64,000 nt of DNA from Candidatus Latescibacterota bacterium (lineage in GTDB: Bacteria > Latescibacterota > UBA2968 > GCA-2709665), in assembly GCA_965226795.1 (NCBI GenBank), contig CBDDDZ010000005.1, positions 2,445,257 through 2,509,256 on the forward strand. Direction: 5' to 3'. The notes beneath the pieces were generated by a model. That model worked only from the letters and a program-made list of their open reading frames with translations. It was not told the DNA's origin and did not search any database. Of this stretch, positions 23,617-41,749 are shown in pieces. Position 1 is the stretch's first letter. The number at the start of each line of letters is the position of its first letter. The translations under genes and the position numbers were made by a program.

Positions 23617-23787
23617 GGCTGGTAGACAATCGATGGCATCTGAAGTTCGGGCACGGGTGTCGATGTGTCGGGTACAGGTGTCGAGTATAATCGCGGGGGG
23701 ATGGGATACGAAACGTCAAGGCCGGTCAGAACCTGGCTTATCCGTCGTCCGAGGGACAATTCACGCCGACACTTCGCGTTGCCGTCG

Positions 23788-24018
23788 CTATTGGAATAGC
23801 GGCTCTAAATCCTCAATGACGGCCAGTACGCCAAGGCAGGTGAACACCAGTCCGCAAACGATATTCAGCGTGACGAGGAAAGAACCCATCCTGAACGGTC
23901 TGGGCAGATATTTGCGATCGGTCCATACCATGGCAAAGCACCAGGGTCCGGCCAACAGAACCCCTGTAATATGCAGCGGAATCATCATCATTGAAATCGG
24001 GTTCCAACCCACGCCCAC
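23788..24018 (-). CDS. Hypothetical small membrane protein (2 predicted TM helices)
   Basis: 76 aa, hydrophobic segments; no family recognised. Confidence 0.3.
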   Translation of the reverse strand: MGVGWNPISMMMIPLHITGVLLAGPWCFAMVWTDRKYLPRPFRMGSFLVTLNIVCGLVFTCLGVLAVIEDLEPLFQ

Positions 24019-24251
24019 ACCGTTTCTCCGCTTCCAGTCGTTACCGACGCGATGACGGCCCCGGGTCCGAAGAACTTCAGGAAGTCCAGGGCTCGCCGGG
24101 AGCGCAACTCCGGCGCCAATTCCGGAAAACGCTGCTTCTCTTCCTCAGGATTCACAATAGGCCCCTGCAGGTCTATGCTCTCGCGCTCGATATTGACCCG
24201 GCTTCTATTCCCGGCGCGAACGCCGGAGTCCGTGGTCGGTTCGGGAGTGTA

Positions 24252-25217
24252 CTACCTGATTGCGAACGGATTTCCCGGCGATCCGGTGGCGCCCTTGAGC
24301 CTCAGCGGCGCAAAGACGAACGCGAACTCAAACACGCCGTCTGCCGCCAGTTCGTCCAGGTCGAGATTCTCCAGAATATATACGCCGTTACGCTGGATCA
24401 GCAACTCGTGGACCTCGAACGCCCCGTCCGGATCTTCTCCGGGCACGGCCTCGACCGCCCACGTATCGGCGCCGACCATGACGATTTTCTTTTTCAGCAG
24501 CCACCGCGCGGCTTCCAGCCCGATACCCGGCTGACCCGAGTTGTAAGTCTCGTTGTCCACTTTCCATAAACTTCCATGGCCGGTACGAAACAGTACGACA
24601 TCCCCTTCCGTGACCTCTACACCCTGTTTTTTCAAGGCCCTTTCAATGTCAGCTGCGGTAATCACATAACCCACATCCAACCGCGCCAGCCCCTTGTGGC
24701 CCACCACGTCGACCAGAACGCCCCGGGTGAAAAACACACCCACGTTTTCAACGCCCAGTTTCTCCAGTCCGTAGGCGGTGCCAATCTCCGAACGCCTGAA
24801 TCCATTGTAAAAGATGTCCTCATTGCCCTTGCGCGTACCGATGTGCCCCAATCCATCGAATTGGGTTCCCACCTGTCCGATCTCGCCGCTGAACATTTCG
24901 TCGTGCCAGATCAGCTGGTTCTCTCCGACAGGTCCTCCGGTTGGCGAACCGGGAATGGTCAGACTGTAATGCCGGTTGCCGAAGAGCGGAATTCCCGGCT
25001 CATAAACCCGTCCAAGCTGGTATGTCTTGCCCGCCTGGATCAATCTCGCGGCCCCCAATACCTTCTGCGGGGTCAGCCGGTTCATTGCCCCTCTCTGATC
25101 TCCCGCCCCCCACTCGGACGGCCACCATTTATCGCCGCCGGCCCCTTCCTGTCCGAGGGCTGGAGTCATCACGATCAGGCATCCTGCAAACAACGCACAT
25201 GCAAATCGATTTCGCAT
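24252..25217 (-). CDS. Putative cyclase family protein (kynurenine formamidase-like fold), secreted
   Basis: Signal peptide MRNRFACALFAGCLIVMTPALG; central GTQFDGLGH region resembling the cyclase-family metal-binding motif. Confidence 0.7.
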   Translation of the reverse strand: MRNRFACALFAGCLIVMTPALGQEGAGGDKWWPSEWGAGDQRGAMNRLTPQKVLGAARLIQAGKTYQLGRVYEPGIPLFGNRHYSLTIPGSPTGGPVGENQLIWHDEMFSGEIGQVGTQFDGLGHIGTRKGNEDIFYNGFRRSEIGTAYGLEKLGVENVGVFFTRGVLVDVVGHKGLARLDVGYVITAADIERALKKQGVEVTEGDVVLFRTGHGSLWKVDNETYNSGQPGIGLEAARWLLKKKIVMVGADTWAVEAVPGEDPDGAFEVHELLIQRNGVYILENLDLDELAADGVFEFAFVFAPLRLKGATGSPGNPFAIR

Positions 25218-25428
25218 TCCGGCCTCCTCTCGGGGTTTGGGTCGACACTGTATCGGAACGCACCGGGATTATGATAATACCTCCAAAGTTCAAAGGCAAG
25301 CGCGGAATGCCCATATATCCCCAACGTACAGAAGGGTATTGCGCCTGGACCATGCACATGCTATTTTAGAAGCCGCCCGCCTGGCGGGGTACCGTTTCCG
25401 CACTCTGCATCTTTTTCGAGGCCCTCCA

Positions 25429-26452
25429 ATGAAGACCAAAACGCTAGGGAGGACCGGCCTGGAGATCCCCATTGTGGGTCTGGGTACCGGCTTTATCGGA
25501 ATCGCGGATCCCAACCGCGCGGCATCGGAATACGAGTTCATGGATGCGTGGACCACGGGTCGGCCGAGACCTTCCGGCGAAGGTGCCGGGCAGTCCAGCC
25601 ATATGGATATCGAATTGGGAGTTGCAACGGTGCACGCGGCGATCGAAGCGGGCTCTACGCTGATCGATACCGCGCCGCTGTACGGTTCGGGCAACAGCGA
25701 ATCCATTATTGGCCGGGCCCTCAGGCGACGTCCCGACCTCGCAAAACGATGCGCGGTTACCACAAAGGTCGGGCAGACGGCCGACGGACGGAACTATTCC
25801 TACGACGCCGTTATGCGGCAGGTAGAGGGAAGCCAGGACCGGCTGGGCATCGACGCCTTCGAAGTTCTCTACATCCGTGGACGACGCCATGGACATACCC
25901 GTAAAAGACGTTATGGGAAAGAATCGCGCCCTCGGCGCCCTTCGAAAACTGCAGGACACGGGCGTCACACGTTGTGTCGGCACCGCCGCCAACGACCCCC
26001 GCACCAACGCCTGGTACATCGAAACGGGGGAATTCGATGCCGCCGTCGTTCCGGAAGCGCTCAGCCTCATCAATCAGCTTGCCGCCGATCGAATCCTGCC
26101 GGCGGCGGTCAGACACAACGTGGGCCTCCTGATCGCCACACCCGTAGAACGGGGGCTGCTTGCCACCGGTCCTGTAGACGGCATCAACTACCTCGCCCGG
26201 AAATTCAGCCAGACCTGCCTGGACCACGTGGCGAGAATCCAGGACCTTTGCACGAGCCACGGCGTCCCCATGGTTGCGGCAGCCCTTCAATGGTGCACAC
26301 GACATCCACAGGTTGCCGCCACCATCCCCGGCGCCCGTGTTCCGTCCGAGGCCCGTGCCAATGCCAACGCCGGAGCCGTTGATATACCTGAAGCATTCTG
26401 GATAGATCTCGGCCACCTCATCCGCCACTTTGAAGTCGACGTGGACCGGTAG
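25429..26452 (+). pseudogene. Aldo/keto reductase interrupted by a +1 frameshift near 25872-25878
   Basis: N-terminal AKR sequence (MKTKTLGRTGLEIPIVGLGTG...LIDTAPLYGSGNSE) in frame 1 up to ...AFEVLYI; the family continues in another frame from 25877 (DDAMDIPVKDVMG...LIATPVERGLLATG...IPGARVPSEARANA). Frame 1 then runs on through Arg-rich nonsense. Confidence 0.75.
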
Positions 26453-26506: not shown

Positions 26507-27397
26507 ATGTCTTTAAAACTGACCCTCCTGGGCACCGGAACTCCCACCCCTCTTTTCCACCGCGCAGGTTCCGGCTACCTCGTCACCTTCGACGAGGAAG
26601 TCCTGCTGTTCGACTGCGGCCCGGGTGTCGCACGACGCCTCCTCGAAGCGGCGGTCCCTCCCCAGGCGTTGACGCGCCTCTTCCTTACCCACCTCCACTA
26701 CGACCACTGCGTGGACTACGCATGTATCGTACTCACCCGCTGGGATCAGGGTGCGGGAAAGATCCCGGAGCTTGAGGTATTCGGTCCGGCTCCTTTGAAA
26801 CGCATGACCGAACGGCTCCTCGGATCCGACGGCGCCTTCGGTCCCGACCTCGACGCCCGGACACGGCACCCCGGCAGCGAGTTCGTTTACGAACGGCGGG
26901 GCGGAATTCTGCCCCGGAAACGCCCCGACCCCCTCGTCACCGAAGTTGCGGACGGCTCATGCATTCAGGGTGGTAACTGGCGAGTCGAAACCGCCGAAGT
27001 CATCCATGTCCAACCGCAGCTCACTTGCCTGGCCTTCCGGCTGGACACACCCTACGGGACGATTGTTTTCGGAGGAGACACGGCGCCGACCCGCCGCCTG
27101 ACGGACCTGGCGCGGGATGCGGACGTCCTCATCCACATGTGCCACTTGATCAACGACGTTGAACTCGACCCGCGAATCACAGGTTGCTGTTCCGGACACC
27201 TCGACGCCGCCCGGACCGCCTCGGAAGCGGACGTCGGCACCCTTGTCCTGACTCACGTCACCGAACAACTGGAACCACCCGGCGTCCGTGAACGCCTCGT
27301 GGCCGAAGCCGCGCGCATTTTCGGCGGCCACATCGTCTTCGCGGAAGATCTCATGGAAGTGCCCGTGGGTCCCATCGATCCGAAGCCCATTCAGTAG
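26507..27397 (+). CDS. MBL-fold metallo-hydrolase
   Basis: LFLTHLHYDH (HxHxDH) plus downstream His/Asp ligands; 296 aa. Confidence 0.85.
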   Translation: MSLKLTLLGTGTPTPLFHRAGSGYLVTFDEEVLLFDCGPGVARRLLEAAVPPQALTRLFLTHLHYDHCVDYACIVLTRWDQGAGKIPELEVFGPAPLKRMTERLLGSDGAFGPDLDARTRHPGSEFVYERRGGILPRKRPDPLVTEVADGSCIQGGNWRVETAEVIHVQPQLTCLAFRLDTPYGTIVFGGDTAPTRRLTDLARDADVLIHMCHLINDVELDPRITGCCSGHLDAARTASEADVGTLVLTHVTEQLEPPGVRERLVAEAARIFGGHIVFAEDLMEVPVGPIDPKPIQ

Positions 27398-27478: not shown

Positions 27479-28843
27479 ATGAGGGCCCTCATCCTGGCCG
27501 CCGGAAAAGGCGACCGATTCTATCCCTTCAACCACTATCGTCCCAAGCCCATGTTTCCCGTATGCAACCGGCCCCTGCTGGAGTGGATCGTCGAACGCAT
27601 CGTTGGCGCGGGCATCACGGACGTGGGCATCGTCGTCGGCCATCGACAGGGTCGCATACGAAACCATTTTTCCGACGGCGACAGGTTCGGATGCAGGATT
27701 ACCTTTATTGAACAGGGGGAACAACTCGGCACGGCCCACGCCGTCTGCGCCGCGGCAGGCTTCATCGGCAACGACGACTTTCTGGTCGTCTACGGCGACG
27801 TCTTCTTCGAGCCGATCATCCTTTCGCAACTCCTTGATGCATTCTCCGACCGTTCCGTTGCCGCGGTACACCATAGCGAGCAGCTCAACCGGCGCATTCG
27901 CGTGGAAACCGATACCCGTGAAAACATCGTCAACTACACCTGGAAGCCCCGGTCATCCACCGGCACCGCGCTGTCGGGCCTTTTCATATTCAGGAACGGC
28001 GCGCTTCAGGATCTTGCCAGTACGTCGGATTTTGTATCGAATGTACAAAACGGCGTCACGCCGCCCGAGGGCCACGAAATCGCCGATGCCCTGCCGCTCA
28101 TGTTCCGGGAAGGCCGGCCCGCCGCCGCCGTCCGCACGGAAGGTACGTGCTTCGACATGGACATGCCGTGGGAACCCCTGGCCGTCTGTCGTCTGGCCTT
28201 GCGTGAAATGGCCAGGGACCTGCAGGACTCTCAGACAGCGGCAACGGCGCGGATCGATCCCGGCGCGCACATCGACGGCCCGGTGTTTGTCGACGATGGC
28301 GCGACAATCTCAGCCGGCGCACGTATCAGCGGACCGGCCTGGATCGGCAGAAACACGCATGTTTTCGAAGGTTCCCAGATTGCGTCGGGCACCGTTATCG
28401 GAGACGACTGCCGGATAGGGCCCTTCGCGAAGGTCTCTGGTTTTGTTGACCGCAACAACCACATCACCTTTCTCGGCGAGTTCAGTGGCGTCATTCTGGC
28501 CGGCGGTCGAATCACCCACCAGATGCAAATTGCCGGTATCTATGGCGAAGGCGCGGAATTCGGCGCCGGCACCCAGGTGGGTACGCTCCGATTCGACGAT
28601 GGACCCACGCAGGTTGAAGTGAAAGGAATCCGTCGTCCCGCGCCAGGATTCTCCGGCGCCCTCTTCGGCGACTACGCGCGCACCGGCGTGGGAACCATCC
28701 TCATGCCCGGCCGCATTGCCGGCCCCGGCGCCATGGTCGGTCCCGGCGTCGTTCTGATGAAAAACGCGCCAGCTCACAAGGCCGTTATTCTGAAGCAGGA
28801 GCATCAGGAAATAGACTGGGGGCCGGAAATCTACGATCGTTAA
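27479..28843 (+). CDS. Sugar-phosphate nucleotidyltransferase with C-terminal left-handed beta-helix (GlmU/RmlA-like)
   Basis: N-terminal MRALILAAGKGDRFYPF...KPMFPV NTP-transferase signature (variant GKGDRF); C-terminal hexapeptide repeats (IGDDCRIGPFAKVSGFV...). Confidence 0.8.
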   Translation: MRALILAAGKGDRFYPFNHYRPKPMFPVCNRPLLEWIVERIVGAGITDVGIVVGHRQGRIRNHFSDGDRFGCRITFIEQGEQLGTAHAVCAAAGFIGNDDFLVVYGDVFFEPIILSQLLDAFSDRSVAAVHHSEQLNRRIRVETDTRENIVNYTWKPRSSTGTALSGLFIFRNGALQDLASTSDFVSNVQNGVTPPEGHEIADALPLMFREGRPAAAVRTEGTCFDMDMPWEPLAVCRLALREMARDLQDSQTAATARIDPGAHIDGPVFVDDGATISAGARISGPAWIGRNTHVFEGSQIASGTVIGDDCRIGPFAKVSGFVDRNNHITFLGEFSGVILAGGRITHQMQIAGIYGEGAEFGAGTQVGTLRFDDGPTQVEVKGIRRPAPGFSGALFGDYARTGVGTILMPGRIAGPGAMVGPGVVLMKNAPAHKAVILKQEHQEIDWGPEIYDR

Positions 28844-28962
28844 GATTCTACTCTAAATCCCCGGTGCGTTCCCGAGCACGAGCGAAAACGTATCGGTCGA
28901 CGCCTTTCCAGCCGCGCGAAGACCGCTGGGGGTGTTAAGACAGCTTCCAAGACGGAGGGTCG

Positions 28963-30714
28963 ATGCAACGCGACCATATCGTAACCGAGATTCGCCGGCG
29001 CGCCGATCGCTACAGACCCCAGACCCATCTGATTGCCGACTATTACAGGATTCGGCGGAAAATCGCTTACCCCCTTCCGATCCGCAGGATTGATCTGCCC
29101 GGTCTGCCGGTACCCGGCATCAATGCGTATCCCTGGGCCATATGGATGACCTGGAGCCTGGAAGAGCGAGTCCTCAGCCTCGGGTGGGCGGGGTCCTGGT
29201 TCCGCGACGAACAGGCGCGCCGGTTGGCCGTCGCCGACTTGGACGCTCTGGCCGAATGGCCGTGCTACCGCCAGTTTCCGATGCCCGACCTGAGTTCGGG
29301 TCATGCGCTGCGCATCCTCTGGCTGGCCTACACCCGGTGGGACTGGCTGCCCGGGAGCCTGTCGGGAAAGATCGAACGGGCGTTTCACCGCCACATTGAA
29401 GACACGCTCCCGTTGTCCGACGCCAGACACGGTGCGTTTCAGAGCAAGGACGATATCCTCGCCCTGGACGAACCCCACACCGTGCTGCACAACATCCCGT
29501 TCATCGGCACGGTCGGCCTCGCCCTGGCCGCCAACTGCATTGCGCATCCCGCCGCAGACACATTGAACCGCAGGCTGGAGGCGCTCCTTGGCGCGATCCT
29601 GGATCTGCGCAAGACCGGTCATTCGGAGGGGATCGGTTACGACGGGTACATCCTGGACTTCGCCGCCGATTGGCTAGGGACACTCTCCAGGACCAGACGC
29701 ACGGCCCTGCTGGACCATCCGCGCTTTGGCGACGTCCTGGATGAGTCCATCGCGCTCGGGGCGCCCGGCAACATCGCGAATATTGCCCAGTTAAGCGATG
29801 CGGAACCCCGGGAGATGCCGTTCCACGTATCCTGCCACGCCAAACTCTACCAGTACCGGCCCTCGCCGCGTACGGGCTGGTACCTGAAACGCTGCCCCCT
29901 GCGCTGGTTGCGCGCCGACGCCCTGGGTGCGCTCCACGAGGTAGCCGAGGATCTTAAATGTGAGCCGCCCGAAGCCGGGGCTATCGATGCGCACTATGCG
30001 GTCGTGCTCAGGAGCGGATGGGAATCTGACGACCTGGCGGTGGCCATTGCGGCGAGCAACTCGAAGATGAGCCACATCCACAACGACAACGGCTCCATCG
30101 TCGTCGGCGCCGGAGGCCGCTGGCCGATATCCGACCCCGGCTATCAACAATATATGAAGAAAAGAGAACGTGAATTCACCCTGGGGCTCACGGCACACAA
30201 TGCGCCTGTCATCAACGGTATGGCGCAGACGGTGAAGCCGGAAATCCGCCGGGTCGCCCTGCGGCGGCGCGATGAAACGACGTATATGGCCGAATTGGAC
30301 CTGACGGCATGTTATCCCGCCGGACTGGCGTTGAAACGGGTCGTTCGAACGCTCTGGCTTTCGCAAAAGAACCTGGTTGTCCTCGCCGACCGCGTTCGCG
30401 GCGCCGCTGTCGAAACCATCACCTATCACTGGCACGGGCACCCCGACGCGGCCTGGTGGGTACAGGACGACATGGCCCGGATCTACGCGCCCGACCTAAC
30501 GCTATGGATTGGCTCGCCCCAGGCACGGATCACAGACGGGAACGTAGACCGGCTTCTCGGTTCCAGAGGCCACCTTACACTCAGCGCGAGTGCAGATTCA
30601 TCAGCGCCGTTCGTCTGGTGGATATTCGCGAAAGGCGATGCGCGGCCCGCCGTGACTGTACACGAACGGGGGTACGGGATACGCGTCGACGGTCGCAGTT
30701 TTCGGATTCAATGA
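28963..30714 (+). CDS. Heparinase II/III-like (alginate-lyase-superfamily) protein, no signal peptide
   Basis: C-terminal SHIHNDNGSIVVG motif characteristic of the Hepar_II_III domain; N-terminal alpha/alpha-toroid-like region; 583 aa. Confidence 0.75.
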   Translation: MQRDHIVTEIRRRADRYRPQTHLIADYYRIRRKIAYPLPIRRIDLPGLPVPGINAYPWAIWMTWSLEERVLSLGWAGSWFRDEQARRLAVADLDALAEWPCYRQFPMPDLSSGHALRILWLAYTRWDWLPGSLSGKIERAFHRHIEDTLPLSDARHGAFQSKDDILALDEPHTVLHNIPFIGTVGLALAANCIAHPAADTLNRRLEALLGAILDLRKTGHSEGIGYDGYILDFAADWLGTLSRTRRTALLDHPRFGDVLDESIALGAPGNIANIAQLSDAEPREMPFHVSCHAKLYQYRPSPRTGWYLKRCPLRWLRADALGALHEVAEDLKCEPPEAGAIDAHYAVVLRSGWESDDLAVAIAASNSKMSHIHNDNGSIVVGAGGRWPISDPGYQQYMKKREREFTLGLTAHNAPVINGMAQTVKPEIRRVALRRRDETTYMAELDLTACYPAGLALKRVVRTLWLSQKNLVVLADRVRGAAVETITYHWHGHPDAAWWVQDDMARIYAPDLTLWIGSPQARITDGNVDRLLGSRGHLTLSASADSSAPFVWWIFAKGDARPAVTVHERGYGIRVDGRSFRIQ

Positions 30715-30775
30715 ACCTACACATCGGACGGACATCCATGGCCGCCGTCAGCGATCGAAGAGCAGGAACTTCCGA

Positions 30776-32707
30776 ATGAAAGCTTCCAAAATCTGCGACG
30801 TCCCTTTCCTGGCGCCCTCCAATTCCCCGGGGGAACTCATATTCGACCCCAAACTCGGCCGCCGGGTGCTCTACCAGTCCATGTTCTCCGCGGTTCCGGG
30901 GCGTCCACCCGCCCTGGTACGCACCGACTTCGAACGCCACGAATATGCGTCCTTTGCCCAGCCGGACGGCCGCGGGACCTGGAAGGTCCGACTCCTGTCC
31001 GATAATAAAATCTGGTTCGGCATGAACGGCCCGGGGCAACTCGCCTGTTTCAACCCGATCACCGAGTCCTACGAAGACATCCCGCCCCATAGCCCGACAA
31101 CGAAAAACTCTCACCTCACGGATGTCGTCGAAGGATCGGACGGACGGCTGTACATGCCAGGCTTCCCCTCCGGCGACTGTGTGGCCTACGACCGGGATAC
31201 CGGCGAATACAGAGAAGTCGCGGTCGAGGAGAGAAACCACCAGCTCTTCGCCGCATGTCTCACCGACGGTGGGCACATCGGCATTCTCAACGGCCTTCAG
31301 CACGGGGTCTACGCCCTCGACCCGCGCAGCGACGAAGTTAACGTGGTGTCGCCGCCCCACCTTACCGGTCGGCCGGACGCCTACAGCGGCTTCCTGCGCC
31401 TCGGGGACCAGTTCCTGGTCACGCTCGGCCACCCCGACGGCGGTATTGAAATCTGTCGTTTCTCCGCGCTCGACCTCAGCTTTCTCGGTTCCTTCGTTGT
31501 CACGACCGCGGTTACCTCCGGACGAAACCTGATGGCCTCGCCGGACGGCCGCGTTTTTATGAGCGTGGACGACGGCTACATTTACGCCATTGACCTGGAA
31601 ATGGAAACCGCCGAACTGGCCTGCCGTATCCGTGGCGTTCCCAGCCGGGGCCACTACCACTTTCTGGACGAGAATCGGGTTATCTTCGCCGGCCATTCAC
31701 AGTATTACGGCATTTGCGACATCCGAACCGCCGAACTAGACCTCCGCCGGACCGAGATCGAAAACCCCCGTATCGGCATCTTTTCCATCCTTCCGGTCTC
31801 GTCCGGAAATATGTACTGCTCGGCCCATCTGGGCCTTTCCCTCTCACGCGTGGATCCGAAGTCGGGACGGGCAGATATATTGGGCCTGACGTACAATGGC
31901 TCCGGCGAAATCTACGGCAGCGCCGAAGCCCACGGCAATATCTACAGCATCGCCTACACCCACAACGTCCTTACCGTATACGACCCGAATCGACCCTGGC
32001 GGCCCGGCCCCGCGGAGGGCGACAACCCCCGGAATCTGGGCCCGATGGGAGAAGAGCAGTACCGCCCTGTAACCGGCATTATCAATGGGCCAGGAGACAG
32101 ACTCTACATCGGATCCATGCCGGACTATGGGGCCCGGGGTGGCGCACTTACCGTCATCGATCCTGCAGATAACAGTCACAAATCCTACCGCCACCTGATC
32201 CCCGACCATTCCATTTTGGGCCTGACCGTCGGCCCCGAACACGTGTATCTCGGCACCAGCATCATCGCGGACGGCTATATCCGGCCTTCCGAAGGCGACG
32301 CCTGTTTTCTGATTTTCGATCCCGATCGTGAAAACGTCCTGTTCGAACAGGAAATCGAGGGCGCCCGCAGCCTTATAACCATGGGATGTGGCGCCGACAG
32401 TGTCTTTTTCTGGACCGACGACCACGCGGGCGGCAACCGCTTTTTCGTCTGCCGCCTTGCTGACCGCGCCTTCCACACCCTCAGCACCTCGCTCACCAGC
32501 GGCAGACCTCACAACCGGCCCATGGTCACCGGCGCGGACGGCAACCTCTACTTCACCCACGGTAACCGCATTGTTCGACTCGATCCCCGAACCGAAGAAC
32601 TCGCCATTGCCCACACCGCGGACTCTCGCGAGACGCCGATTCTGGCCGCCACAGGCAACGGTATCCTGTTCTCCCAACGCCACGAACTCTGGCTTGGTAC
32701 TATATAG
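30776..32707 (+). CDS. Hypothetical large beta-propeller protein (NHL/SGL/Vgb-lyase-like repeats)
   Basis: Repeated ~45-aa units with DG(R/N)LY/ DGxIY / GNLYFT signatures across 643 aa; no signal peptide. Confidence 0.6.
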   Translation: MKASKICDVPFLAPSNSPGELIFDPKLGRRVLYQSMFSAVPGRPPALVRTDFERHEYASFAQPDGRGTWKVRLLSDNKIWFGMNGPGQLACFNPITESYEDIPPHSPTTKNSHLTDVVEGSDGRLYMPGFPSGDCVAYDRDTGEYREVAVEERNHQLFAACLTDGGHIGILNGLQHGVYALDPRSDEVNVVSPPHLTGRPDAYSGFLRLGDQFLVTLGHPDGGIEICRFSALDLSFLGSFVVTTAVTSGRNLMASPDGRVFMSVDDGYIYAIDLEMETAELACRIRGVPSRGHYHFLDENRVIFAGHSQYYGICDIRTAELDLRRTEIENPRIGIFSILPVSSGNMYCSAHLGLSLSRVDPKSGRADILGLTYNGSGEIYGSAEAHGNIYSIAYTHNVLTVYDPNRPWRPGPAEGDNPRNLGPMGEEQYRPVTGIINGPGDRLYIGSMPDYGARGGALTVIDPADNSHKSYRHLIPDHSILGLTVGPEHVYLGTSIIADGYIRPSEGDACFLIFDPDRENVLFEQEIEGARSLITMGCGADSVFFWTDDHAGGNRFFVCRLADRAFHTLSTSLTSGRPHNRPMVTGADGNLYFTHGNRIVRLDPRTEELAIAHTADSRETPILAATGNGILFSQRHELWLGTI

Positions 32708-32748
32708 GTTGGGTCACACGCACCGTACTCTCAATAACGGAACCCGAC

Positions 32749-34875
32749 GTGAAAGTCAATCCCCATTGGAAAAACCGGATACGCCCCGACCACCCCCGGC
32801 TGTTCCTCAACCGCGACACGCTGCCGGCAATCCGCGCCCGCGCGTTGAGGGTCTGCAACGACCACTACCTCAAGGTCAAGTCGTTCGCCGAGGCGTCTCC
32901 ACCCGACCTCGAATGGGCCGTTGTCAACCGTCCTCCGCCGCTGCCGGACGGCACCGAAGTGCGCGATTGGGGCCACCGGATAATGGGCTCGGCCATCGTT
33001 TATCTCGTGGAACCCACCGTGGAACGTCTCGTCCGACTCGTGTCCGAACTGCGCGCAAGCGCGGAATACTACCACGCCTGTTACGCCGAAAACGAATCCG
33101 TCAATTGGTACGCCGCCAGTCGCGCCGCCTGCCTGGTTGCCCTGGACTGGGTCTGGAACGACCTATCCGTCGAAGTCCGCCGCGAGATCGGCCTGCGCCT
33201 CCTCGACCACGTGGACGAAGCCCTTCATAAGCCCGGCATCCGTCGCCGCAACGGTTCCGACCACCGCAGCGGATTCTACGGCGCGCCCAGCCTGGCCTGG
33301 TTCGCGGGGCTCCTGCTCCACGGGGAAGGTATCGACGATATGAGGGCGGCTCGTTTTCTCGAACGGGGCTACGACGACCACGTAAAGCTGCTGGTTCACC
33401 GGGCGTCCACGTGCGGGGACGACGGCGGCGAAGCCTCTCCCACGCTCGGGTACGCGTTCGGCGAATACCCGCTGGCGCAATGGAACTTCATCCACACCCT
33501 TCGATCGTCAACCGGTCAAGACATTTCCGGGAATTGGCCGCACATCCGGATGTTCCCAAACTACGTTATCTGGAACTGGCTGCCGGGCGACCTTGAGTTC
33601 GGTTACGGCGACAACGCACACGTCGACAACAGGATGCGGACAAACTGGATGTACACCCATATGTCCCACATCATGCACTTTTTCGGTCAAACCCATCCCG
33701 AGTGGGCCGGACTCGCGCGTTTTATCCGCGGCATGGCCGGCGGCGCCTTTCCGCGGGACAAATGGCCCATCTACCCGTTTCTGCTTGACGGGATCGACAA
33801 CACGCCACCGGCTCGTGGCCCCGGCATCCTGCCGCCTGCCCGTCATTTCGAAGACCTGGGTCAGATCTTCATGCGCTCCGGCTCCGGAGACGACGACACG
33901 TATGCCCTTTTTTGCGGTGGCGGCAGCCTTAAAAGCCACCGCCATTACGACGCCACCCACTTTACCATCTTCAAGAAGGGTTTCCTTGCCCTCGACAGCG
34001 GCACCCGGCAGGGAAACACCGACAACCTGCAGAACTACTACGCGCAGACCGTCGCCCACAACTGCGTCCTGATCAAGATGCCCGGCGAAGCACCTTCACC
34101 ATACTGGAACGGCGACGTCTTCGGGCAGGCCGGCGGCCAGAACAAGACGATCGGCTCCGAAATTACCGCCTTCGAAACCAACCCCCATTTCACCTACATC
34201 GCCGCCGACGCCACCCCGGTCTACAACCGCGAAAAATGCGCGCTCATGGTTCGCCAGTTTATCTTCCTGCCGCCGGACCATTTTGTCGTGTTCGACCGGG
34301 TCACGTCCACCCGCGCCGGGTACGCCAAAACCTGGCTCCTGCACCATGCCAACGAGCCCCTCGTTGAGGGCAACACCTGGCGGTCGGATCAGGGCAAGGG
34401 GCGCATATTTGCCCGCACGCTCCTACCCGAAGATGCTGTTCTCGACAAGGTCGGCGGTCCCGGCAAAGAGTTCCTTGCCGACGGGGTCAACTATGGGATC
34501 GACGCCGGTCCTTCCCGGCTTATCATAGAGAACAAATATCCCATAGGGAGAATTCAATACGACGATATCCCCGAGCTGATGGGACGATGGCGAATGGAAG
34601 TGAGACCGGCGACGGCCCGGAAGGAAGACCTCTTCCTGCATCTCATACAGGTCGTGGATCAATCCCTATGTGGGATGAGCGACGCCAGCGTTACCGTGAC
34701 CGGGGCCAACGTTGAACTCAGCTTCAGCGGAACCGATGAAGCTGTCTTCGTTTCGTTCGCAGCCGTGGGAGAGATAGGCGGTCACATCACCCGCATCCGG
34801 AACGGAAAACGGATCGTCGAAAAGGATCTCGCCCGGGATGTCCAGGCCCAGGCCGGTCTCGCCATACCCGCATAG
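32749..34875 (+). CDS. Heparinase II/III-like protein, second paralog-like member, no signal peptide
   Basis: SHRHYDATHFTIFKKG Hepar_II_III motif; large N-terminal helical domain; 708 aa. Confidence 0.75.
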   Translation: MKVNPHWKNRIRPDHPRLFLNRDTLPAIRARALRVCNDHYLKVKSFAEASPPDLEWAVVNRPPPLPDGTEVRDWGHRIMGSAIVYLVEPTVERLVRLVSELRASAEYYHACYAENESVNWYAASRAACLVALDWVWNDLSVEVRREIGLRLLDHVDEALHKPGIRRRNGSDHRSGFYGAPSLAWFAGLLLHGEGIDDMRAARFLERGYDDHVKLLVHRASTCGDDGGEASPTLGYAFGEYPLAQWNFIHTLRSSTGQDISGNWPHIRMFPNYVIWNWLPGDLEFGYGDNAHVDNRMRTNWMYTHMSHIMHFFGQTHPEWAGLARFIRGMAGGAFPRDKWPIYPFLLDGIDNTPPARGPGILPPARHFEDLGQIFMRSGSGDDDTYALFCGGGSLKSHRHYDATHFTIFKKGFLALDSGTRQGNTDNLQNYYAQTVAHNCVLIKMPGEAPSPYWNGDVFGQAGGQNKTIGSEITAFETNPHFTYIAADATPVYNREKCALMVRQFIFLPPDHFVVFDRVTSTRAGYAKTWLLHHANEPLVEGNTWRSDQGKGRIFARTLLPEDAVLDKVGGPGKEFLADGVNYGIDAGPSRLIIENKYPIGRIQYDDIPELMGRWRMEVRPATARKEDLFLHLIQVVDQSLCGMSDASVTVTGANVELSFSGTDEAVFVSFAAVGEIGGHITRIRNGKRIVEKDLARDVQAQAGLAIPA

Positions 34876-34935
34876 GTTCCTTCACGCGTGTGACGGACGG
34901 ATTCCCGTTTTTTTATTCTAACGGAGAGACATCAA

Positions 34936-35838
34936 ATGAACGAATTCCGCGGCATCTATCCCGCGTTGATCACACCGATGACACCTGAAGGAGACTTTAA
35001 CGAAGAGGCCTTCCGTCGGCTTGTGGAATACAATGTAAGATCGGGCGCCCACGGTTTCTGGGTTGCGGGCGGCGCCGGTGAAAGCGTCCTCCTGGAAGAC
35101 GAAGAAAATGCCCGCATCGCCGAAGCCGCCGCCGAACAGGCCGCCGGCCGCGCGAAAATCATCATGCACGTGGGGGCGGCCACCACCGTACGTGCCGCCA
35201 GGATGGCCGAGAACGCCGCAAAGGCCGGGGTTGAAGCCATCTGCGCCGTACCTCCCTTCTTTTACCGGACCGGACCGGACGAAATCGCCGAACACTACCG
35301 GGTCGTGGGCGCGGCGGCAAACCTTCCCCTATTCATCTATAATCTTCCAAATGCCACCGGTGTGGAAATCACCCTCGAACTGGCGGAGAAAATCCGGGGG
35401 CGCGTTCCGCAACTCACCGGCCTGAAACATTCGGCGCCCGCATTCGCAAACACACGTCATTTCGCCAAAATGGGCCTCTCGTGCCTCATCGGCAGCGCCG
35501 CGCTTCTTCTTCCCGCGCTCACCATCGGTGCTTCAGGCTGCGTGGACGGGCCGCTTTCGTTGTCACCGGACGTGTGGGTCAACATTTGGACAGCGTACCA
35601 CAGCGGAAATATCGAGGTTGCGGAAGCCGAACAGGACCGCGCCGCCGAACTCTATACGATCTTCCGCCGCGTCGGTTACATCGCGTCCCTGAAGGCCCTG
35701 CTCTCCGAGAAACTCGGCATCGACTGCGGCGACCCCCGCCCCCCGCAACGTCCGCTCACCGGCGAGGAGAGAGCCTTTGTCATCCGGACGGCGACGGCAC
35801 TGGGGATGATGGAGATCGAAAGTCAGGGTGGCCGCTGA
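34936..35838 (+). CDS. Dihydrodipicolinate synthase/N-acetylneuraminate lyase (DapA/NanA) family class I aldolase
   Basis: GIYPALITPMT...GFWVAGGAGESVLL...IIMHVGA...PPFFY family pattern; 300 aa. Confidence 0.88.
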   Translation: MNEFRGIYPALITPMTPEGDFNEEAFRRLVEYNVRSGAHGFWVAGGAGESVLLEDEENARIAEAAAEQAAGRAKIIMHVGAATTVRAARMAENAAKAGVEAICAVPPFFYRTGPDEIAEHYRVVGAAANLPLFIYNLPNATGVEITLELAEKIRGRVPQLTGLKHSAPAFANTRHFAKMGLSCLIGSAALLLPALTIGASGCVDGPLSLSPDVWVNIWTAYHSGNIEVAEAEQDRAAELYTIFRRVGYIASLKALLSEKLGIDCGDPRPPQRPLTGEERAFVIRTATALGMMEIESQGGR

Positions 35839-35915
35839 CCGTTCCGGTCCATGCCGATATCCTTTGCCCGCGCTTTGCGCGGCTACTTTAAACCCTTTTA
35901 ACGGAGAACGCCCGT

Positions 35916-36845
35916 ATGATCCCCCTGCTCAGCAGCCTTTGCTACGGACCGCTTGAAGTCTGTCAACTCCCCCGGACCTGGTGGAAAGTCCTGCTTCGAA
36001 ACGCGGGCCTGCTCGATGAAGAATACCCCGACGTCAGCGAAGGCCTGGATAAATCCGTCCTTGAAGTGCTGAACCTGGACAGAGAAACAACCCTGGCGTA
36101 CTTGCGGGAGAACATGCCCGACTACCTCCAGTTTGAAGCCTGGGTCCTCGAACAAAACGACGGAAAGTTCGAACGAAAAGCAATCGAAAGCTGGAATGAA
36201 TCCGTGCGTACCCGGGTTCACACCCGGCCCGATAAGCTGCAGGAAACCACGAGTGACATCGGCATTCCCAACGACGGCGCGATCACGTCAGCCGTGATCC
36301 TCAACAGCCTCCAGGACGGGTCGCTTTTCTTCAGACGGGACCTGACGGAGGGATTTTCGGCCCTGGGCGGTCGCGTCGTGCCCCTCGTCTCCAGCCTGGA
36401 CTACGGACCGCTCAACGTCTGCCAACTCCCGCGTACCTGGCTGAAAATACTGCTCAGATCCCGGAACCTGCTTCATCCCGACTATCCCGACATGACCGAA
36501 AACGGCCTGGACCCCCGTGTTCTGCGCGCCGTGAACATCCAGCCGAACGACGCCGTTTGTTTCATCCGGGACAACGCGCCTATGTATCTTGACTTCGAAG
36601 CCTGGATTCTGCGACAAAACGACGGAACCGTCGACCCCGGCGCCGTCGACGAATGGAACAAATTCGTGCGAACCCGAATCCATTCAAATGAGAAAATCGC
36701 GGACATTCACAATACCCTCGGCCTGGAAAACGACGGCAGCCTGACCTCCGCCGTCGTCCTGAACCACGTTGAAGACTGGCACTTCGCGCACGCGGACCTG
36801 ACGGGCACGGGCGACCGTTCGTCGCGACCGGCAGAGGCCGTCTGA
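35916..36845 (+). CDS. Protein of unknown function built from two tandem copies of a ~150-aa domain
   Basis: Halves share SL(C/D)YGPL(E/N)VCQLPRTW(W/L)K(V/I)LLR, PDYPD, P(D/M)YL(Q/D)FEAW(V/I)L(E/R)QNDG, EWN(E/K)(S/F)VRTR(V/I)H and NDG(A/S)(I/L)TSAV(I/V)LN in the same order; no signal peptide. Confidence 0.7.
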   Translation: MIPLLSSLCYGPLEVCQLPRTWWKVLLRNAGLLDEEYPDVSEGLDKSVLEVLNLDRETTLAYLRENMPDYLQFEAWVLEQNDGKFERKAIESWNESVRTRVHTRPDKLQETTSDIGIPNDGAITSAVILNSLQDGSLFFRRDLTEGFSALGGRVVPLVSSLDYGPLNVCQLPRTWLKILLRSRNLLHPDYPDMTENGLDPRVLRAVNIQPNDAVCFIRDNAPMYLDFEAWILRQNDGTVDPGAVDEWNKFVRTRIHSNEKIADIHNTLGLENDGSLTSAVVLNHVEDWHFAHADLTGTGDRSSRPAEAV

Positions 36846-37349
36846 AAATCCTGAAGCTGCCCCGCGCGCCGCAACAAACCGGAACCCACCCGTATCGGCT
36901 GGGTTTTTTGGCATGATAATGGAGATTATCGACGGACGTCTATGTCGCCATCTCATCAATCCTCCATTTTGGCCTTCAAGTCATTGTTGACTTCACTCGT
37001 ACTACGGATTAAATTACTACTAAATTTACGTATTAGTCTACTTTACCCGTAAATAGAACCGGCAGGGCAGATCTTCCATGTGGAGCCAGGAGCCCCAACG
37101 CCACCCGGGGTCACGGGAAGTCGCCTCGCTTTGAATAAGCCGCAGGCGATAATCGGCTGTACAAGTAGCTAACGCCGTTCAAAGATCTGTTCGCGTTCGG
37201 AAAGGAGGTGATACTGGAATCCACGTCGCTAAACGTTTCGCTGCTGTACATCTACGTGAGAAACTGTAGTTCGAGGCAAGTGCTGAAATGACACGTTTCG
37301 CTGTGTGAGTGATCGAGCGATGCCGCCGAAAAATGCACACCAGGTCTCT

Positions 37350-37610
37350 TCATTTCGCTATCACACCCTCCAGGTCAATCCCTAACCGTCCGTTGATAAT
37401 GTCGCTCTGCAGGCGAGGCCCAGTGTCCCGTCCCGGAAATAGATTGCCATTGTGAACGACGACAAGGCGCGCGACCGAGTCGAATAGGTGGATTCGGGGA
37501 GGGCGCGCAACGCAGTAATTCGGCCACAAGAGCCGGCCGCAGCCCGGATGGACTTTTTCAACGGCCTGCCAAGTTCCATCAAGCACAGTCTCTTCATACG
37601 GTTCATTCAC
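37350..37610 (-). CDS. Hypothetical 86-aa protein (GTG start) inside low-GC non-coding island
   Basis: Complete small ORF; weak and unconvincing resemblance to HicB/UPF0150-type antitoxins around VHPGCG; may be non-coding. Confidence 0.25.
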   Translation of the reverse strand: MNEPYEETVLDGTWQAVEKVHPGCGRLLWPNYCVARPPRIHLFDSVARLVVVHNGNLFPGRDTGPRLQSDIINGRLGIDLEGVIAK

Positions 37611-37612
37611 AG

Positions 37613-37913
37613 TTAATCACCCCGTAATCGCGTGAATCACAGTCCGTGGTACGGCTGGGTGGCGCTCCCTGCGCCTTAGTCTCAGTCAGTCACGGTAATC
37701 ACGCAAGCCGCAGTCCGGGGTGTGGTTGAGCGACGTGCCTTCCGCTTTAATTTCCCAGTTAATCACCGCAATCATATGAATCACAGTCCGGGTGTGGTTG
37801 GCCGGCGGGCTTTGCCGTTTAATCACAGTCCCGGGGTGTGGTTTGGCGACGTGCCTTCCGATTTAATCGCAGTTTATCCGTCTAATCACAGTTAATCATA
37901 GTCTGGGGGTGTA
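37613..37913. repeat. Array of degenerate direct repeats with ~11 copies of a (T/G)TAATC(A/G)C motif
   Basis: Three good ~41-45 bp copies: 37711-37751, 37784-37823 and 37826-37866 (cagtccgggg tgtggtt...gtgccttccg.tttaat), with partial copies at 37639-37660 and 37896-37910. aatcac/aatcgc motifs recur at irregular spacing; no unique regular spacers. Confidence 0.6.
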
Positions 37914-37916: not shown

Positions 37917-38827
37917 ATGAAAAAGTTAACAATTTTGAGCCTCATTCTTCTTTTGACGGCTGTTTTGTTCGCACAGGATTACACTCGCTGGGGACTTCCC
38001 GAAGGGGCCCTCTTGCGGATGGGCAAAGGAGACGTGCGCGCCGTGGCCTGGTCGCCGGACGGCACGCGTCTGGCCGTGGGGGCACCGCCGGGATCTGGCT
38101 CTACGATGCCCGCACCGGGGCGGAAGTTTCCCTGATCACAGGCCATACGAGGAGAGTCAATTCGATGGTGTATTCGCCGGATGGGATGACCCTGGCAAGC
38201 CGCAGTTTCGACAATACGGTGCGGGTGTGGGACGTGGAAACGGGGCAGGAGAAAAGCACCCTCACCCTCACAGGGCATACCCGTGAAGTATTTTCGGTGG
38301 CGTATTCGCCGGATGGGACGATGCTGGCAAGCGCCAGTCGGGACAGTACCGTGCGGCTGTGGGACCTGGCCACAGGACAGGAAATACACACCCTCACGCG
38401 GGCGGCTACCGGCGGGTCCAGTATAGCGTTTTCGCCGGATGGGACGATGCTGACAAGCACCAAGTGGGACCATACGGTGCGGTTGTGGGACGTGGAGACT
38501 GGACAGCAAAAATACAGCCTGACAGGACATACGGACAACGTCACTTCGATGGTGTTTTCTCCGGATGGGACGATGCTTGCAAGCGGAAGTCACGACGGCA
38601 CGATTCTGCTGTGGGATGTGGCGCCGTATGTCGCACCTCAACCCCTAGCTGCCGACTTCGACGGCGACGGGACCGTGGATTTTCCCGACTTTCTGCAGTT
38701 CGCGGCGCAGGTCGGGCTGAGCCAGGGCGAGGCAGGGTATGAAGCGCGCTTCGACCTGGACGGCGACGGCACCGTCGGGTTCAGCGATTTTGTAATCTTT
38801 GCACGCAACTTCGGCCAGGGCGGGTGA
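37917..38827 (+). pseudogene. Secreted WD40 beta-propeller protein with C-terminal dockerin-like repeats; -1 frameshift in a G5 run (38078-38082)
   Basis: Signal peptide MKKLTILSLILLLTAVLFAQ; first WD repeat in frame 1 stops at 38135 while the WD repeats (SPDGT.LAS.S.D.TVRLWD) continue in another frame from ~38084 to 38827. A sixth G would restore LAVGGTAGIWLYDARTG. C-terminus has two DxDGDGTV(D/G)F calcium-binding dockerin-type loops. Confidence 0.75.
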
Positions 38828-38932
38828 GGCGCCGGCGCCGTGCTGCGCCAGCAACCCTCACCGGGTATACCCTCACAAAAAAGGCGCCCGAGATTCCGGG
38901 CGCCTTTGACGTCTTTTCCTTTTTCGGCACGT

Positions 38933-41632: not shown

Positions 41633-41749
41633 TTGTTGAGCGCGGGATCCGGAAACGACTGCCGAGCGGGAACAACGCATCCTGCGTACCGGAAGCTGGC
41701 CGCAAAACCGGACGACCTGGTGGGGCGTATCGATTCCGGGAGGAGCCAG

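Follow-up and report, generated by a model that had tools for sequence, protein, structure and literature searches.

The oligo-uronide pathways offer the closest described parallel to the locus analysed here. In these pathways, lyases such as Atu3025 (PL15) and Alg17c (PL17) act inside the cell, ahead of a DEH reductase and KDG metabolism. The enzymes join an alpha/alpha toroid to a beta-sandwich and rely on Tyr/His catalysis, and cytoplasmic exolytic lyases of this heparinase-type fold are well established, PL15 Atu3025 being one example. The catalytic residues of the fold are common to lyases and C5-epimerases. Heparinase II (HepB, PL21) of Pedobacter heparinus and the PL35 and PL33 lyases provide further points of comparison. 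Latescibacteria are enriched in PL12, PL15, PL17, PL21 and PL22 genes (PMC4454575).

A 64 kb stretch of a Latescibacterota genome (hereafter the window) carries a co-directional run of genes that includes two heparinase-fold proteins. The run and its boundaries are as follows:

24252..25217, minus strand: divergent putative cyclase/formamidase gene (PF04199), upstream boundary of the run
25429..26452, plus strand: aldo/keto reductase (AKR), first gene of the co-directional run, frameshifted in the window
26507..27397, plus strand: MBL-fold hydrolase (RNase Z-like, Lactamase_B), with Pfam and NCBIfam matches and an intact ORF
27479..28843, plus strand: g1, predicted NTP-transferase/LbH protein, 454 aa (NTP_transferase and Hexapep)
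28963..30714, plus strand: g2, heparinase-fold protein, 583 aa (Hepar_II_III_C)
30776..32707, plus strand: g3, double propeller, 643 aa (AlphaFold model)
32749..34875, plus strand: g4, heparinase II relative, 708 aa, GTG start (Hepar_II_III_C; PDB heparinase II)
34936..35838, plus strand: g5, predicted DapA/NanA-type aldolase, 300 aa (DHDPS)
35916..36845, plus strand: g6, tandem DUF5069-like protein, 309 aa, internally duplicated, last gene of the run
36888..36910, plus strand: terminator-like hairpin with a trailing T run, 43 nt beyond the stop of g6 (consensus scan and sequence)

All six co-directional ORFs of the original prediction, g1 to g6, are present. The gaps between them are 119, 61, 41, 60 and 77 bp, a range of 41–119 bp where 42–120 bp had first been proposed, and 81 bp separate g1 from the MBL gene. 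The hairpin after g6 is the probable 3′ end of the transcription unit, although the terminator scan is weak evidence, returning 22 such sites in comparison with 16 expected from shuffles. Within the run, terminator-like sites occur only after g6 and, weakly, after g4. At the other end, the exact PF04199 protein is a called gene in three assemblies. Plus-strand ORFs at 23423-25274 overlap this gene and were rejected as spurious, with no Pfam match and an Arg/Ser/Pro-rich composition.

The co-directional AKR and MBL genes suggested as upstream members of the unit were both recovered. By tblastn, the AKR reads in two frames here but in a single frame in nine relatives, and its product is an intact 339 aa in L043 and L045. 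Comparison with a sibling short-read assembly traces the frameshift to a 4-nt insertion, GTGG, at about 25877-25880; Pfam Aldo_ket_red matched the 5′ part. The Pfam and NCBIfam matches of the MBL gene all fall far under equivalog cut-offs, and this gene adjoins the core described below only in the close clade.

The g2 product is an alpha/alpha toroid plus beta-sandwich protein from an uncharacterised, widespread family. It carries Hepar_II_III_C (Pfam, 2e-11) and an HNDNGS motif. Foldseek searches with its structure model (pLDDT 94.4) return PL35, DS-epimerase 1, PL33, PL15, PL17 and PL12 proteins at 10–16% identity, which is also its identity to any characterised lyase. Atu3025 and Alg17c are among these matches, human DS-epimerase 1 ranks fourth, and the best structural and profile matches are the broad-spectrum PL35 glycosaminoglycan lyases (GAGase II/VII) and PL33 (BT4410). 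In the profile alignment, Y226 and H371 of g2 fall on Tyr246 and His401 of GAGase II, whose catalytic role was proven by mutagenesis, and an invariant Asn has the expected spacing (PMC12088678). All 32 sequences examined share N177, Y226 and H371, the candidate catalytic residues. Because the profile E-values are weak (1e-7 to 1e-4) and identity is 12–16%, g2 belongs to a different family from PL35 and PL33; unlike those families, most g2 homologues have Gln in place of the second His in the H-x-H motif.

The g4 product is a distant relative of heparinase II that retains its catalytic His and Zn ligands. Hepar_II_III_C is matched at 3e-9 (Pfam) and an HRHYDATHF motif is present. The C-terminal half of heparinase II (PDB 2fuq) aligns with g4 at 3e-23 from the single sequence and 4e-30 with a profile, placing H397, H399, D416 and H437 on heparinase II His406, His408, Asp425 and His451. 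However, the N-terminal toroid of heparinase II (Tyr257, His202) is not alignable to g4 by sequence, and the NCBIfam HepB model (NF045571) gives g4 112.6 bits, its cut-off being 600. PL15 Atu3025 is also a profile match of g4. Both large proteins thus have the fold or domain originally assigned to them, with catalytic residues kept in each. For g2 and g4, the most plausible activity is uronate-type C5 proton abstraction, by a lyase or an epimerase as first proposed.

The all-intracellular arrangement claimed for the six proteins also held. The ORFs are the longest possible, with an in-frame stop 21–183 nt upstream of each start, and none of the six encodes a signal peptide: over the first 45 residues of g1 to g6, the Kyte-Doolittle mean of 12-residue stretches peaks at 1.31 or less. 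With 19-residue windows the values stay under 2.0, the maximum being 1.94, in g5. Heparinase II is an exported enzyme, in contrast to g4. Many g2 homologues carry a Tat leader, including most of those with an N-terminal extension, whereas the window g2 has none and is predicted to be cytoplasmic. Likewise, the g4 homologues in L040 and L041 (51% identity) have Sec leaders that the window g4 lacks. Because these relatives on other contigs, at ~50% identity, carry Tat or Sec leaders, the cytoplasmic location of g2 and g4 looks lineage-specific.

The third core protein, g3, has no Pfam match. In its AlphaFold model (pLDDT 88.9) the protein is all-beta, and its structural matches are propellers of seven blades and tandem ones. 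The beta-propeller of the original prediction thus becomes two seven-bladed propellers in tandem, outside any defined family. The nearest named propellers are virginiamycin B lyase (Vgb) and the double-propeller glycan sensor domain of BT4663, from a Bacteroides hybrid two-component system. Yet the Pfam Vgb_lyase score of 12.5 bits falls short of the cut-off of 50, the BT4663 TM-score is about 0.33, and both exceed generic WD40 and other propellers by small margins. Unlike hybrid two-component systems, g3 lacks transmembrane and signalling domains, and mapping of catalytic residues onto it gave none. The orthologue group to which g3 belongs is narrow and serves as the anchor of the core; the protein itself may be a lyase or hydrolase, or a partner that binds oligosaccharides.

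From its sequence, g5 is predicted to be a class I (Schiff-base) aldolase or dehydratase of the DapA/NanA superfamily, in line with the initial assignment. The DHDPS domain (Pfam, 7e-53) is that of NanA, its best PDB match, and of archaeal/YagE-type KDG aldolases, with which it has the TIM barrel, Schiff-base Lys and catalytic Tyr in common (K165 and Y137 when aligned to E. coli NAL). Every curated NCBIfam equivalog cut-off is missed by a wide margin. D191/E192 are replaced by A/A and S208 by G; with these sialic-acid-binding residues of NanA gone, a canonical sialate lyase was ruled out. S47/T48, which bind the pyruvate carboxylate in NAL and DHDPS alike, are A/G in g5, so even its predicted activity is not assured.

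Conservation of gene order separates a core from its surroundings. In close relatives (79–91% identity), the whole stretch from an SLT lytic transglycosylase gene to g6 is syntenic, and these loci are therefore uninformative on coupling. In a distant Latescibacterota clade, only g2-g3-g4-g5 recur together, at 56–69% identity and with different flanks. The order there is g2-g3-g4-(amidohydrolase)-g5 (L017, L036-L038 and L039), and menaquinone genes precede it in place of AKR-MBL-g1. A third context, behind fliG, holds g3-amidohydrolase-g4 (L014), and a short contig holds g2-g3-g4 (L018). Hence, within this one phylum-level group of MAGs, co-conservation extends to g2-g3-g4-g5, in two genomic contexts, and not to g1 and g6, which accompany the core only in close relatives with the whole neighbourhood in common. 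The functional core would be g2-g3-g4-g5, and the MBL hydrolase, g1 and g6 are probably lineage-specific neighbours or accessories.

Gene order could also be mere inheritance within one MAG lineage, the proteins being independent and acting on different substrates. The synteny from SLT to g6 is compatible with this, as are the highly variable contexts of g2 and g6 orthologues elsewhere. In other phyla, g2 orthologues are solitary, near a GT4 and a Kdo-kinase-like gene, an NRPS-like gene or an AKR. One close relative (L005) has no g4 at all, and g3 occurs without g2, g4 or g5 in L015, L016, L020, L034 and L035. The neighbours of these solitary g3 homologues are nevertheless carbohydrate-active, in favour of a breakdown role: DUF4838 plus CBM9 in L020; a fucosidase, an FGE-sulfatase/CBM9 protein and a protein with Hepar_II_III_C in L034; and an ABC sugar transporter, a Gfo gene and a large protein with just faint matches to glucuronoyl- and acetyl-xylan-esterase families in L035. 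Nonetheless, the four core genes stay adjacent and in order between entirely different flanks, g3-g4 recur in the third context, and the run is tightly spaced on one strand with the few terminator-like sites noted above. We consider independence unlikely.

The distant core keeps company with a PRK09237/EF_0837-type amidohydrolase/deacetylase, two GFO_IDH_MocA plus Glyco_hydro_109_C proteins, an extra Gfo/Idh/MocA protein and a 2-hydroxyacid dehydrogenase. All of these lack leaders, and no glycosyltransferase or exporter was found among them. The amidohydrolase/deacetylase, the aldolase and the GH109-like oxidoreductases therefore point to a catabolic rather than a biosynthetic set. We give about an even chance to a module for the cytoplasmic breakdown of an imported uronate-containing oligosaccharide, glycosaminoglycan-, ulvan- or alginate-like. 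Here g2 and g4, from unrelated subfamilies of one lyase fold, would take the uronate C5 proton with a Tyr/His pair and cut the 4-O-glycosidic bond of short oligomers by beta-elimination. The resulting unsaturated uronate would open to 4-deoxy-5-hexosulose uronate, for reduction to a 2-keto-3-deoxy sugar acid by the upstream AKR in the window's clade, or by Gfo/Idh/MocA or 2-hydroxyacid dehydrogenases in the distant clade. As the proposed 2-keto-3-deoxy sugar-acid aldolase, g5 would split this acid into pyruvate and an aldehyde. The obligate partner g3 may be a third bond-cleaving enzyme or an oligosaccharide-binding subunit. We infer the substrate class, the order of steps and the roles of AKR and g5 from these assignments.

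Such a module would resemble the oligo-uronide pathways in having an oxidoreductase and a keto-deoxy-acid aldolase-type enzyme nearby. It differs in pairing two lyase-fold subfamilies with an obligate double propeller, and in an aldolase of DapA/NanA (class I) rather than KDPG-aldolase type. No transporter, GH88/GH105, KduI/KduD or KDG kinase gene was found in the run or the 64 kb window. A SusC/SusD-type layout is also absent, as expected from the earlier view that this is no standard polysaccharide-utilisation locus. Intracellular uronate breakdown by such lyases is known already, and g2-g5 most likely represent an uncharacterised version of it.

The original prediction had instead favoured making or remodelling an acidic sugar, a view that sits poorly with the degradative partners of the distant core. 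In that scheme, g1 would make an NDP-(amino)sugar for an envelope or exopolysaccharide product, and g2 and/or g4 would be cytoplasmic uronyl C5-epimerases or would trim a nascent acidic glycan. The assignment of g1 as an NTP-transferase/LbH protein was sound: by its matches to NTP_transferase (2e-26), Hexapep (2e-14), TIGR03992 (234.8 bits, cut-off 292) and, best in the PDB, ST0452 (2ggo, 3e-37), it is predicted to be a bifunctional-type sugar-1-phosphate nucleotidylyltransferase of the archaeal GlmU/ST0452 type, with a left-handed beta-helix acetyltransferase-type domain. It lies directly upstream of g2, only 15 bp away in close relatives. Dermatan-sulfate epimerase 1, which uses similar His/Tyr residues, ranks high among the structural matches of g2; the GT4 glycosyltransferase and Kdo-kinase-like genes lie downstream of one Planctomycetes g2 orthologue, and no importer was seen nearby. 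However, g1 is missing from every distant core occurrence, and the run and window hold no glycosyltransferase, flippase, polymerase or exporter. Moreover, the Tat and Sec leaders of g2 and g4 homologues imply extracytoplasmic action, as is usual for degradative lyases. This is the least probable of the readings weighed here, and a doubtful one.

Recycling of a peptide-bearing glycan (cell-wall fragments, proteoglycan, glycopeptide or amino-acid-amidated uronates) would assign the sugar to g2, g4 and the propeller, and the peptide or amide to metallopeptidases and amidohydrolases. Peptidase_M14 genes do recur near the core: with an MR_MLE-family enzyme directly after g3 (L015 and L016), closing the cluster region (L017, L036 and L039) and directly after the 51%-identical g4-like gene in L041. 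Yet the M14 proteins match MpaA weakly (30 bits, cut-off 157), the MR_MLE protein gets a higher score for sugar-acid dehydratase than for Ala-Glu epimerase, and no M14 gene was found among the scanned window ORFs. An amidohydrolase lies inside the cluster in L014, L017 and L036. The window itself has SLT lytic transglycosylase and Amidase_3 genes upstream and an MlrC/M81 peptidase, a habitual neighbour of g6 homologues, downstream; the first two, however, are ordinary housekeeping genes beyond the divergent gene. To our knowledge, lyases of the heparinase-type fold need a C5-carboxylate (uronate), which peptidoglycan does not offer. Peptide-glycan recycling is accordingly improbable, and breakdown of an acidic oligosaccharide remains our preferred reading.

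Two further observations concern the remaining genes. The window also carries a pair of SGSH_C-domain sulfatase genes, one of which has no room for a leader, and these count in favour of the breakdown reading. The tandem-domain character ascribed to g6 was evident, its halves being 50% identical (E 2e-50), and the first half scores 23.1 bits with DUF5069, under the cut-off of 27. Its 263 homologues, many with PF16798, neighbour not g2-g5 but MlrC/M81 peptidase, RraA-like, Gfo/Idh/MocA and PL22-like propeller genes.

Six plus-strand open reading frames lie exactly where the original prediction placed them. Each is the longest possible, since an in-frame stop occurs 21-183 nt 5′ of every start, and the successive spacers are 119, 61, 41, 60 and 77 bp.

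27479-28843, plus strand: g1, NTP-transferase/beta-helix protein, 454 aa
28963-30714, plus strand: g2, heparinase-fold protein, 583 aa
30776-32707, plus strand: g3, double propeller, 643 aa
32749-34875, plus strand: g4, heparinase-fold protein, 708 aa
34936-35838, plus strand: g5, DapA/NanA-type aldolase, 300 aa
35916-36845, plus strand: g6, DUF5069-like protein, 309 aa
36888-36910, 3′ of g6: terminator-like hairpin with a T run (scan and sequence)
24252-25217, minus strand: putative cyclase (PF04199), a gene called in three other assemblies

A shared strand, short spacers, a terminator-like site at the end and no strong terminator inside (the sole internal site noted, at 34892-34910, is weak) are the marks of an operon, and the run is predicted to form a single transcription unit. 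The gene upstream of the run, the putative cyclase, has the divergent orientation. A plus-strand run beginning at 23.4 kb was rejected, because the ORFs at 23423-25274 overlap the minus-strand cyclase gene and are spurious. With these artefacts removed, the co-directional run comprises eight genes: an AKR, an MBL-fold hydrolase and g1 to g6. The discarded plus-strand ORFs are long, rich in Arg, Ser and Pro and match no family, as are those at 38840-39697 (plus strand) and 41630-42250 (minus strand). Each of the latter two is overlapped by an opposite-strand ORF and is probably spurious too; where tblastn suggests ‘conservation’ of an ORF of this kind in relatives, the signal comes solely from the gene opposite. 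The run does not have the make-up of a Bacteroidota-type polysaccharide utilisation locus: no SusC/SusD pair, secreted enzymes or sensor-regulator occurs among the window genes scanned, and signal peptides are lacking throughout the run.

The six genes had been proposed to act as one functional unit. In close relatives (79-91% identity), everything from the SLT gene to g6 is kept. Because this whole region is conserved, synteny in these loci (L002-L013, L019 and L021; L numbers denote loci in other assemblies compared with the window) is uninformative on coupling and was rejected as evidence. More distant loci have the following gene orders.

L017, L036-L038 and L039, a distant Latescibacterota clade (56-69% identity): MqnE/C/D, then g2-g3-g4-amidohydrolase-g5-GH109-like-GH109-like, Gfo/Idh/MocA, 2-hydroxyacid dehydrogenase and Peptidase_M14
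L014: FliG, then g3-amidohydrolase-g4, an aminoglycoside-acetyltransferase-like gene, DUF2961, Laminin_G_3 and AKR
L018, a short contig: g2-g3-g4

The association of g2, g3, g4 and g5 thus holds in distant loci with different flanks, but that of g1 and g6 does not, both being absent from every distant core locus examined. Homologues of g6 elsewhere adjoin MlrC/M81, RraA-like, Gfo/Idh/MocA and PL22-like propeller genes and sit close to the CBS/PFOR backbone genes that the window also has. From these contexts, g6 looks like part of a conserved chromosomal backbone beside which the cluster is inserted. The variable accessories of the core are reductases, a deacetylase-type amidohydrolase and GH109-like enzymes.

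The core also occurs in reduced forms. In one close relative (L005 10001-12885, 83% identity), g4 is cleanly absent and g5 directly follows g3. In two further Latescibacterota loci (L015 498-5011 and L016 10001-14519), g3 stands alone and is followed directly by Peptidase_M14 and an MR_MLE (enolase-superfamily) enzyme; this site, behind mqnC/mqnD, is the chromosomal position of the full g2-g5 cluster in the other clade. Elsewhere (L020, L034 and L035), a lone g3 has carbohydrate-active neighbours.

Both heparinase-like proteins carry the Hepar_II_III_C domain (PF07940), with scores of 44.2 bits for g2 and 37.4 bits for g4 against a gathering score of 24. In the model of g2 (pLDDT 94.4), helices at about 58-325 form an alpha/alpha toroid and strands at about 339-581 an antiparallel beta-sandwich. 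The model matches PL35, PL33, PL15, PL17, PL12 and PL21 structures at E values of 1e-12 to 1e-19. The best matches are PL35 GAGases, human dermatan-sulfate epimerase 1 (6hzn), PL33, PL15, PL17 and PL12, all at 10-16% identity. In a profile-to-PDB alignment, Y226 and H371 of g2 take the positions of GAGase II Tyr246 and His401, the catalytic pair identified by mutagenesis (PMC12088678). N177, Y226 and H371 are invariant in 32 homologues.

For g4, the PDB match to heparinase II has an E value of 3e-23 from the sequence by itself and 4e-30 from a profile. H397 aligns with the catalytic His406 of HepII, and H399, D416 and H437 with the zinc ligands His408, Asp425 and His451; all four are invariant in nine homologues. 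The candidate catalytic Tyr, Y235, comes from a weak hhalign profile-profile alignment alone (probability 33%). Alignment to HepB covers residues of about 350-660 only, the toroid half not being alignable by sequence, and the HepB model NF045571 gives 112.6 bits (cut-off 600). Judged by these alignments, g4 is related only distantly to heparinase II (PL21), short of family-level, full-length similarity to HepB. The predicted heparinase fold and catalytic residues are therefore borne out by the domain in both proteins, by the toroid and sandwich modelled for g2 and by the residues kept.

The two proteins were rejected as recent paralogues, since they share 24% identity in the C-terminal domain only. 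Orthologues of g2 (at least 50% identity) occur widely across Planctomycetes, Verrucomicrobia and Acidobacteria, and their gene neighbourhoods differ greatly. A metagenome scan with g4 returned four loci only. A Planctomycetes-like contig (L041 6333-15885) has, in this order, genes for a GntR regulator, a DUF1559 protein, a g4-like protein that is exported, Peptidase_M14, an unknown protein of 359 aa and a glycyl-radical enzyme with its activase. Dermatan-sulfate epimerase 1 shares its His/Tyr machinery with lyases of the g2 fold. By sequence, g2 and g4 could each be a lyase or a C5-epimerase, two activities that cannot be separated at this level.

Between these two enzymes, g3 is modelled as two seven-bladed propellers in tandem (pLDDT 88.9). 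It matches no Pfam family. Against Vgb_lyase (PF24684), it scores 12.5 bits with a cut-off of 50, too low for a virginiamycin B lyase, and neither a Vgb-type lyase nor a PL22-type propeller has sequence-level support. Its orthologues are very few: at 50% identity they reduce to a single cluster and some fragments, and the full-length relative that comes next reaches 246 bits against 1259. Around this group lies a broad superfamily of about 1000 clusters with no more than weak matches to generic repeats. When a genome collection was scanned for the g3 family, 20 loci came up, almost all bearing the label Candidatus Latescibacterota and a few Gemmatimonadota; the best, at 91% identity, lies on a 5.8-Mb chromosome (OZ244744.1).

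The fourth core protein, g5, is a class I aldolase of the DHDPS fold. Alignment to E. coli NanA (1nal and 3lci) shows that Tyr137 and the Schiff-base Lys165 are kept, with Ser47/Thr48 replaced by A/G, Asp191/Glu192 by A/A and Ser208 by G. It misses every curated cut-off (NF003164, 150.6 against 281; TIGR00683, 128.6 against 382). Lacking the sialic-acid-binding residues of NanA and lying below all cut-offs, g5 is therefore assigned to the DapA/NanA superfamily only, and a role as sialate lyase was rejected.

Two further genes, g1 and g6, flank the core. An N-terminal NTP_transferase domain and a C-terminal left-handed beta-helix give g1 the architecture of an archaeal-type bifunctional GlmU/ST0452-like sugar-1-phosphate nucleotidylyltransferase/acetyltransferase. 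It is placed there as a putative member below the curated subfamily and equivalog cut-offs: residues 1-425 align with positions 1-392 of the 393 in TIGR03992 at 234.8 bits (cut-off 292.1), and NF041173 scores 165.8 (cut-off 600). Its best PDB match is ST0452 itself (2ggo, 3e-37, aligned over 1-428). In g6, a divergent DUF5069 domain is present twice, by internal duplication (50% identity, E 2e-50). Its first half scores 23.1 bits (E 9e-5) against PF16798, with a cut-off of 27, and the whole protein has no match. Many homologues, 55-96% identical, carry precomputed PF16798 matches; these are ‘faint’ in three of the four neighbourhood loci viewed (L022, L023 and L027), and none is on record for the fourth (L026). 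Literature searches on DUF5069, and on gene clusters combining heparinase II with dihydrodipicolinate synthase, found nothing useful.

The claim that none of the six proteins has a signal peptide was upheld. Within their first 45 residues, the highest 12-residue Kyte-Doolittle mean is at most 1.31; no 19-residue window reaches 2.0, the maximum being 1.94 in g5. The N-termini therefore have no hydrophobic core, and the ORFs are already maximal. In the distant clade, the core genes and all accessory enzymes checked (all except the M14 gene) likewise have no leaders. The all-cytoplasmic state is real. Among 107 g2 homologues with a conserved N-terminal motif, 62 have an N-terminal extension, which in 53 contains a twin-arginine motif. 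The g4-like proteins of L040 and L041 (51% identity) have classical Sec leaders. Latescibacterota copies start exactly at the mature N-terminus. Cytoplasmic location thus looks like a relocation particular to this lineage, not like a trait of the g2 and g4 families.

The folds, the retained residues, the compartment and the four-gene association are established by the analysis. The core most likely encodes a short cytoplasmic route for the degradation of an acidic oligosaccharide. We propose this because it accounts for two lyase-fold enzymes with intact catalytic residues, the lack of export signals, an aldolase of keto-deoxy-acid type and the accessories. The template is provided by the established pathways of alginate and glycosaminoglycan disaccharide catabolism, from which we infer the substrate, the order of reactions and the roles of the AKR and g5. 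An acidic oligosaccharide would be imported, and g2 and g4 would remove its uronate units by beta-elimination. The unsaturated uronate would then rearrange, and a reductase, in the window's clade the AKR, would turn it into a 2-keto-3-deoxy acid, which g5 would split into pyruvate and an aldehyde. Peptidase_M14 and amidohydrolase genes turn up repeatedly near the core, a hint that the substrate may bear peptide or amide substituents. Genes for a transporter, GH88/GH105, KduI/KduD and KDG kinase are absent from the 64-kb window. Of the original prediction, intracellular uronate chemistry is retained in this proposal, but a biosynthetic role is not. The route also fits the reported richness of Latescibacteria in PL12, PL15, PL17, PL21 and PL22 (PMC4454575).

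The AKR is frameshifted in the window by a 4-nt insertion (GTGG, about 25877-25880) and is intact, at 339 aa, in sibling assemblies. Frameshifts occur elsewhere among sibling and related long-read assemblies, in g2 and the MBL gene of L043 and L044 and in g2 of L004 and L010. Because siblings with an intact AKR have lesions in other genes, this scatter suggests assembly indel errors or strain noise over real pseudogenes, and the case for the AKR as a true pseudogene, in what are assemblies of the same population, is weakened. In L044, an IS (DDE transposase) is inserted between the cyclase gene and the AKR.

The proposed degradative core would work like known cytoplasmic oligo-uronide pathways, such as those of PL15/PL17 oligoalginate lyases and PL22 oligogalacturonide lyase. 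It differs from them in four respects: g2 belongs to an uncharacterised lyase-fold family, g4 is a distant PL21 relative, the double propeller g3 is obligate and the aldolase g5 is of the class I DapA type. Two bolder readings are, taken together, unlikely. In one, g3 would found a new carbohydrate-active family, as a lyase/hydrolase or an obligate substrate-presenting subunit, working only with the two ‘internalised’ heparinase-fold enzymes in a so far undescribed, wholly cytoplasmic route by which Latescibacterota would process a uronate oligosaccharide that is sulfated, aminated or decorated with peptide. In the other, g2, g4 or both would be cytoplasmic bacterial uronyl C5-epimerases, which would be rare bacterial tools for glycosaminoglycan engineering. 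Latescibacterota are uncultured and regarded as specialists in breaking down acidic glycans from algae and animals, and the core offers four specific proteins to test, including two families without a characterised member (the widespread g2 and the narrow g3). Characterising g2 and g3 could establish a polysaccharide-lyase family and a substrate that are both new. In addition, the cytoplasmic copies and their Tat/Sec-exported relatives (about 50% identity) present a clean case of enzyme relocation between compartments.

The remainder of the window holds ordinary bacterial housekeeping genes together with two sulfatases, an MlrC/M81 peptidase and a PFOR-like gene.

47184-48545, minus strand: sulfatase with SGSH_C, an N-sulfoglucosamine sulfohydrolase-type domain
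49593-49690, minus strand: tRNA-Sec (ARAGORN; Rfam 73.6 bits)
49820-51718, minus strand: SelB
51706-53160, minus strand: SelA
60687-62390, plus strand: sulfatase with SGSH_C, an N-sulfoglucosamine sulfohydrolase-type domain

The tRNA-Sec is the sole match of the Rfam search, and with SelB and SelA it makes up a complete selenocysteine insertion set in one minus-strand block (49593-53160). In the protein of the minus-strand gene, the sulfatase domain begins at residue 17, leaving no room for a signal peptide, and this protein may be cytoplasmic. A similar sulfatase lies close to the g6/MlrC genes in L022, a distant Latescibacteria contig. The non-coding stretch of 1.0 kb that separates g6 from a WD40-repeat gene is richer in AT and contains about four direct repeats, degenerate and each roughly 72 nt long (37600-37910; motif AATCACAGTCCGGGGTGTGG...). 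Finally, the codons after an ATG at about 37917 resemble a signal peptide in our reading of the DNA; because this ATG is out of frame with ORF 38165-38827, the WD40 gene may be frameshifted.
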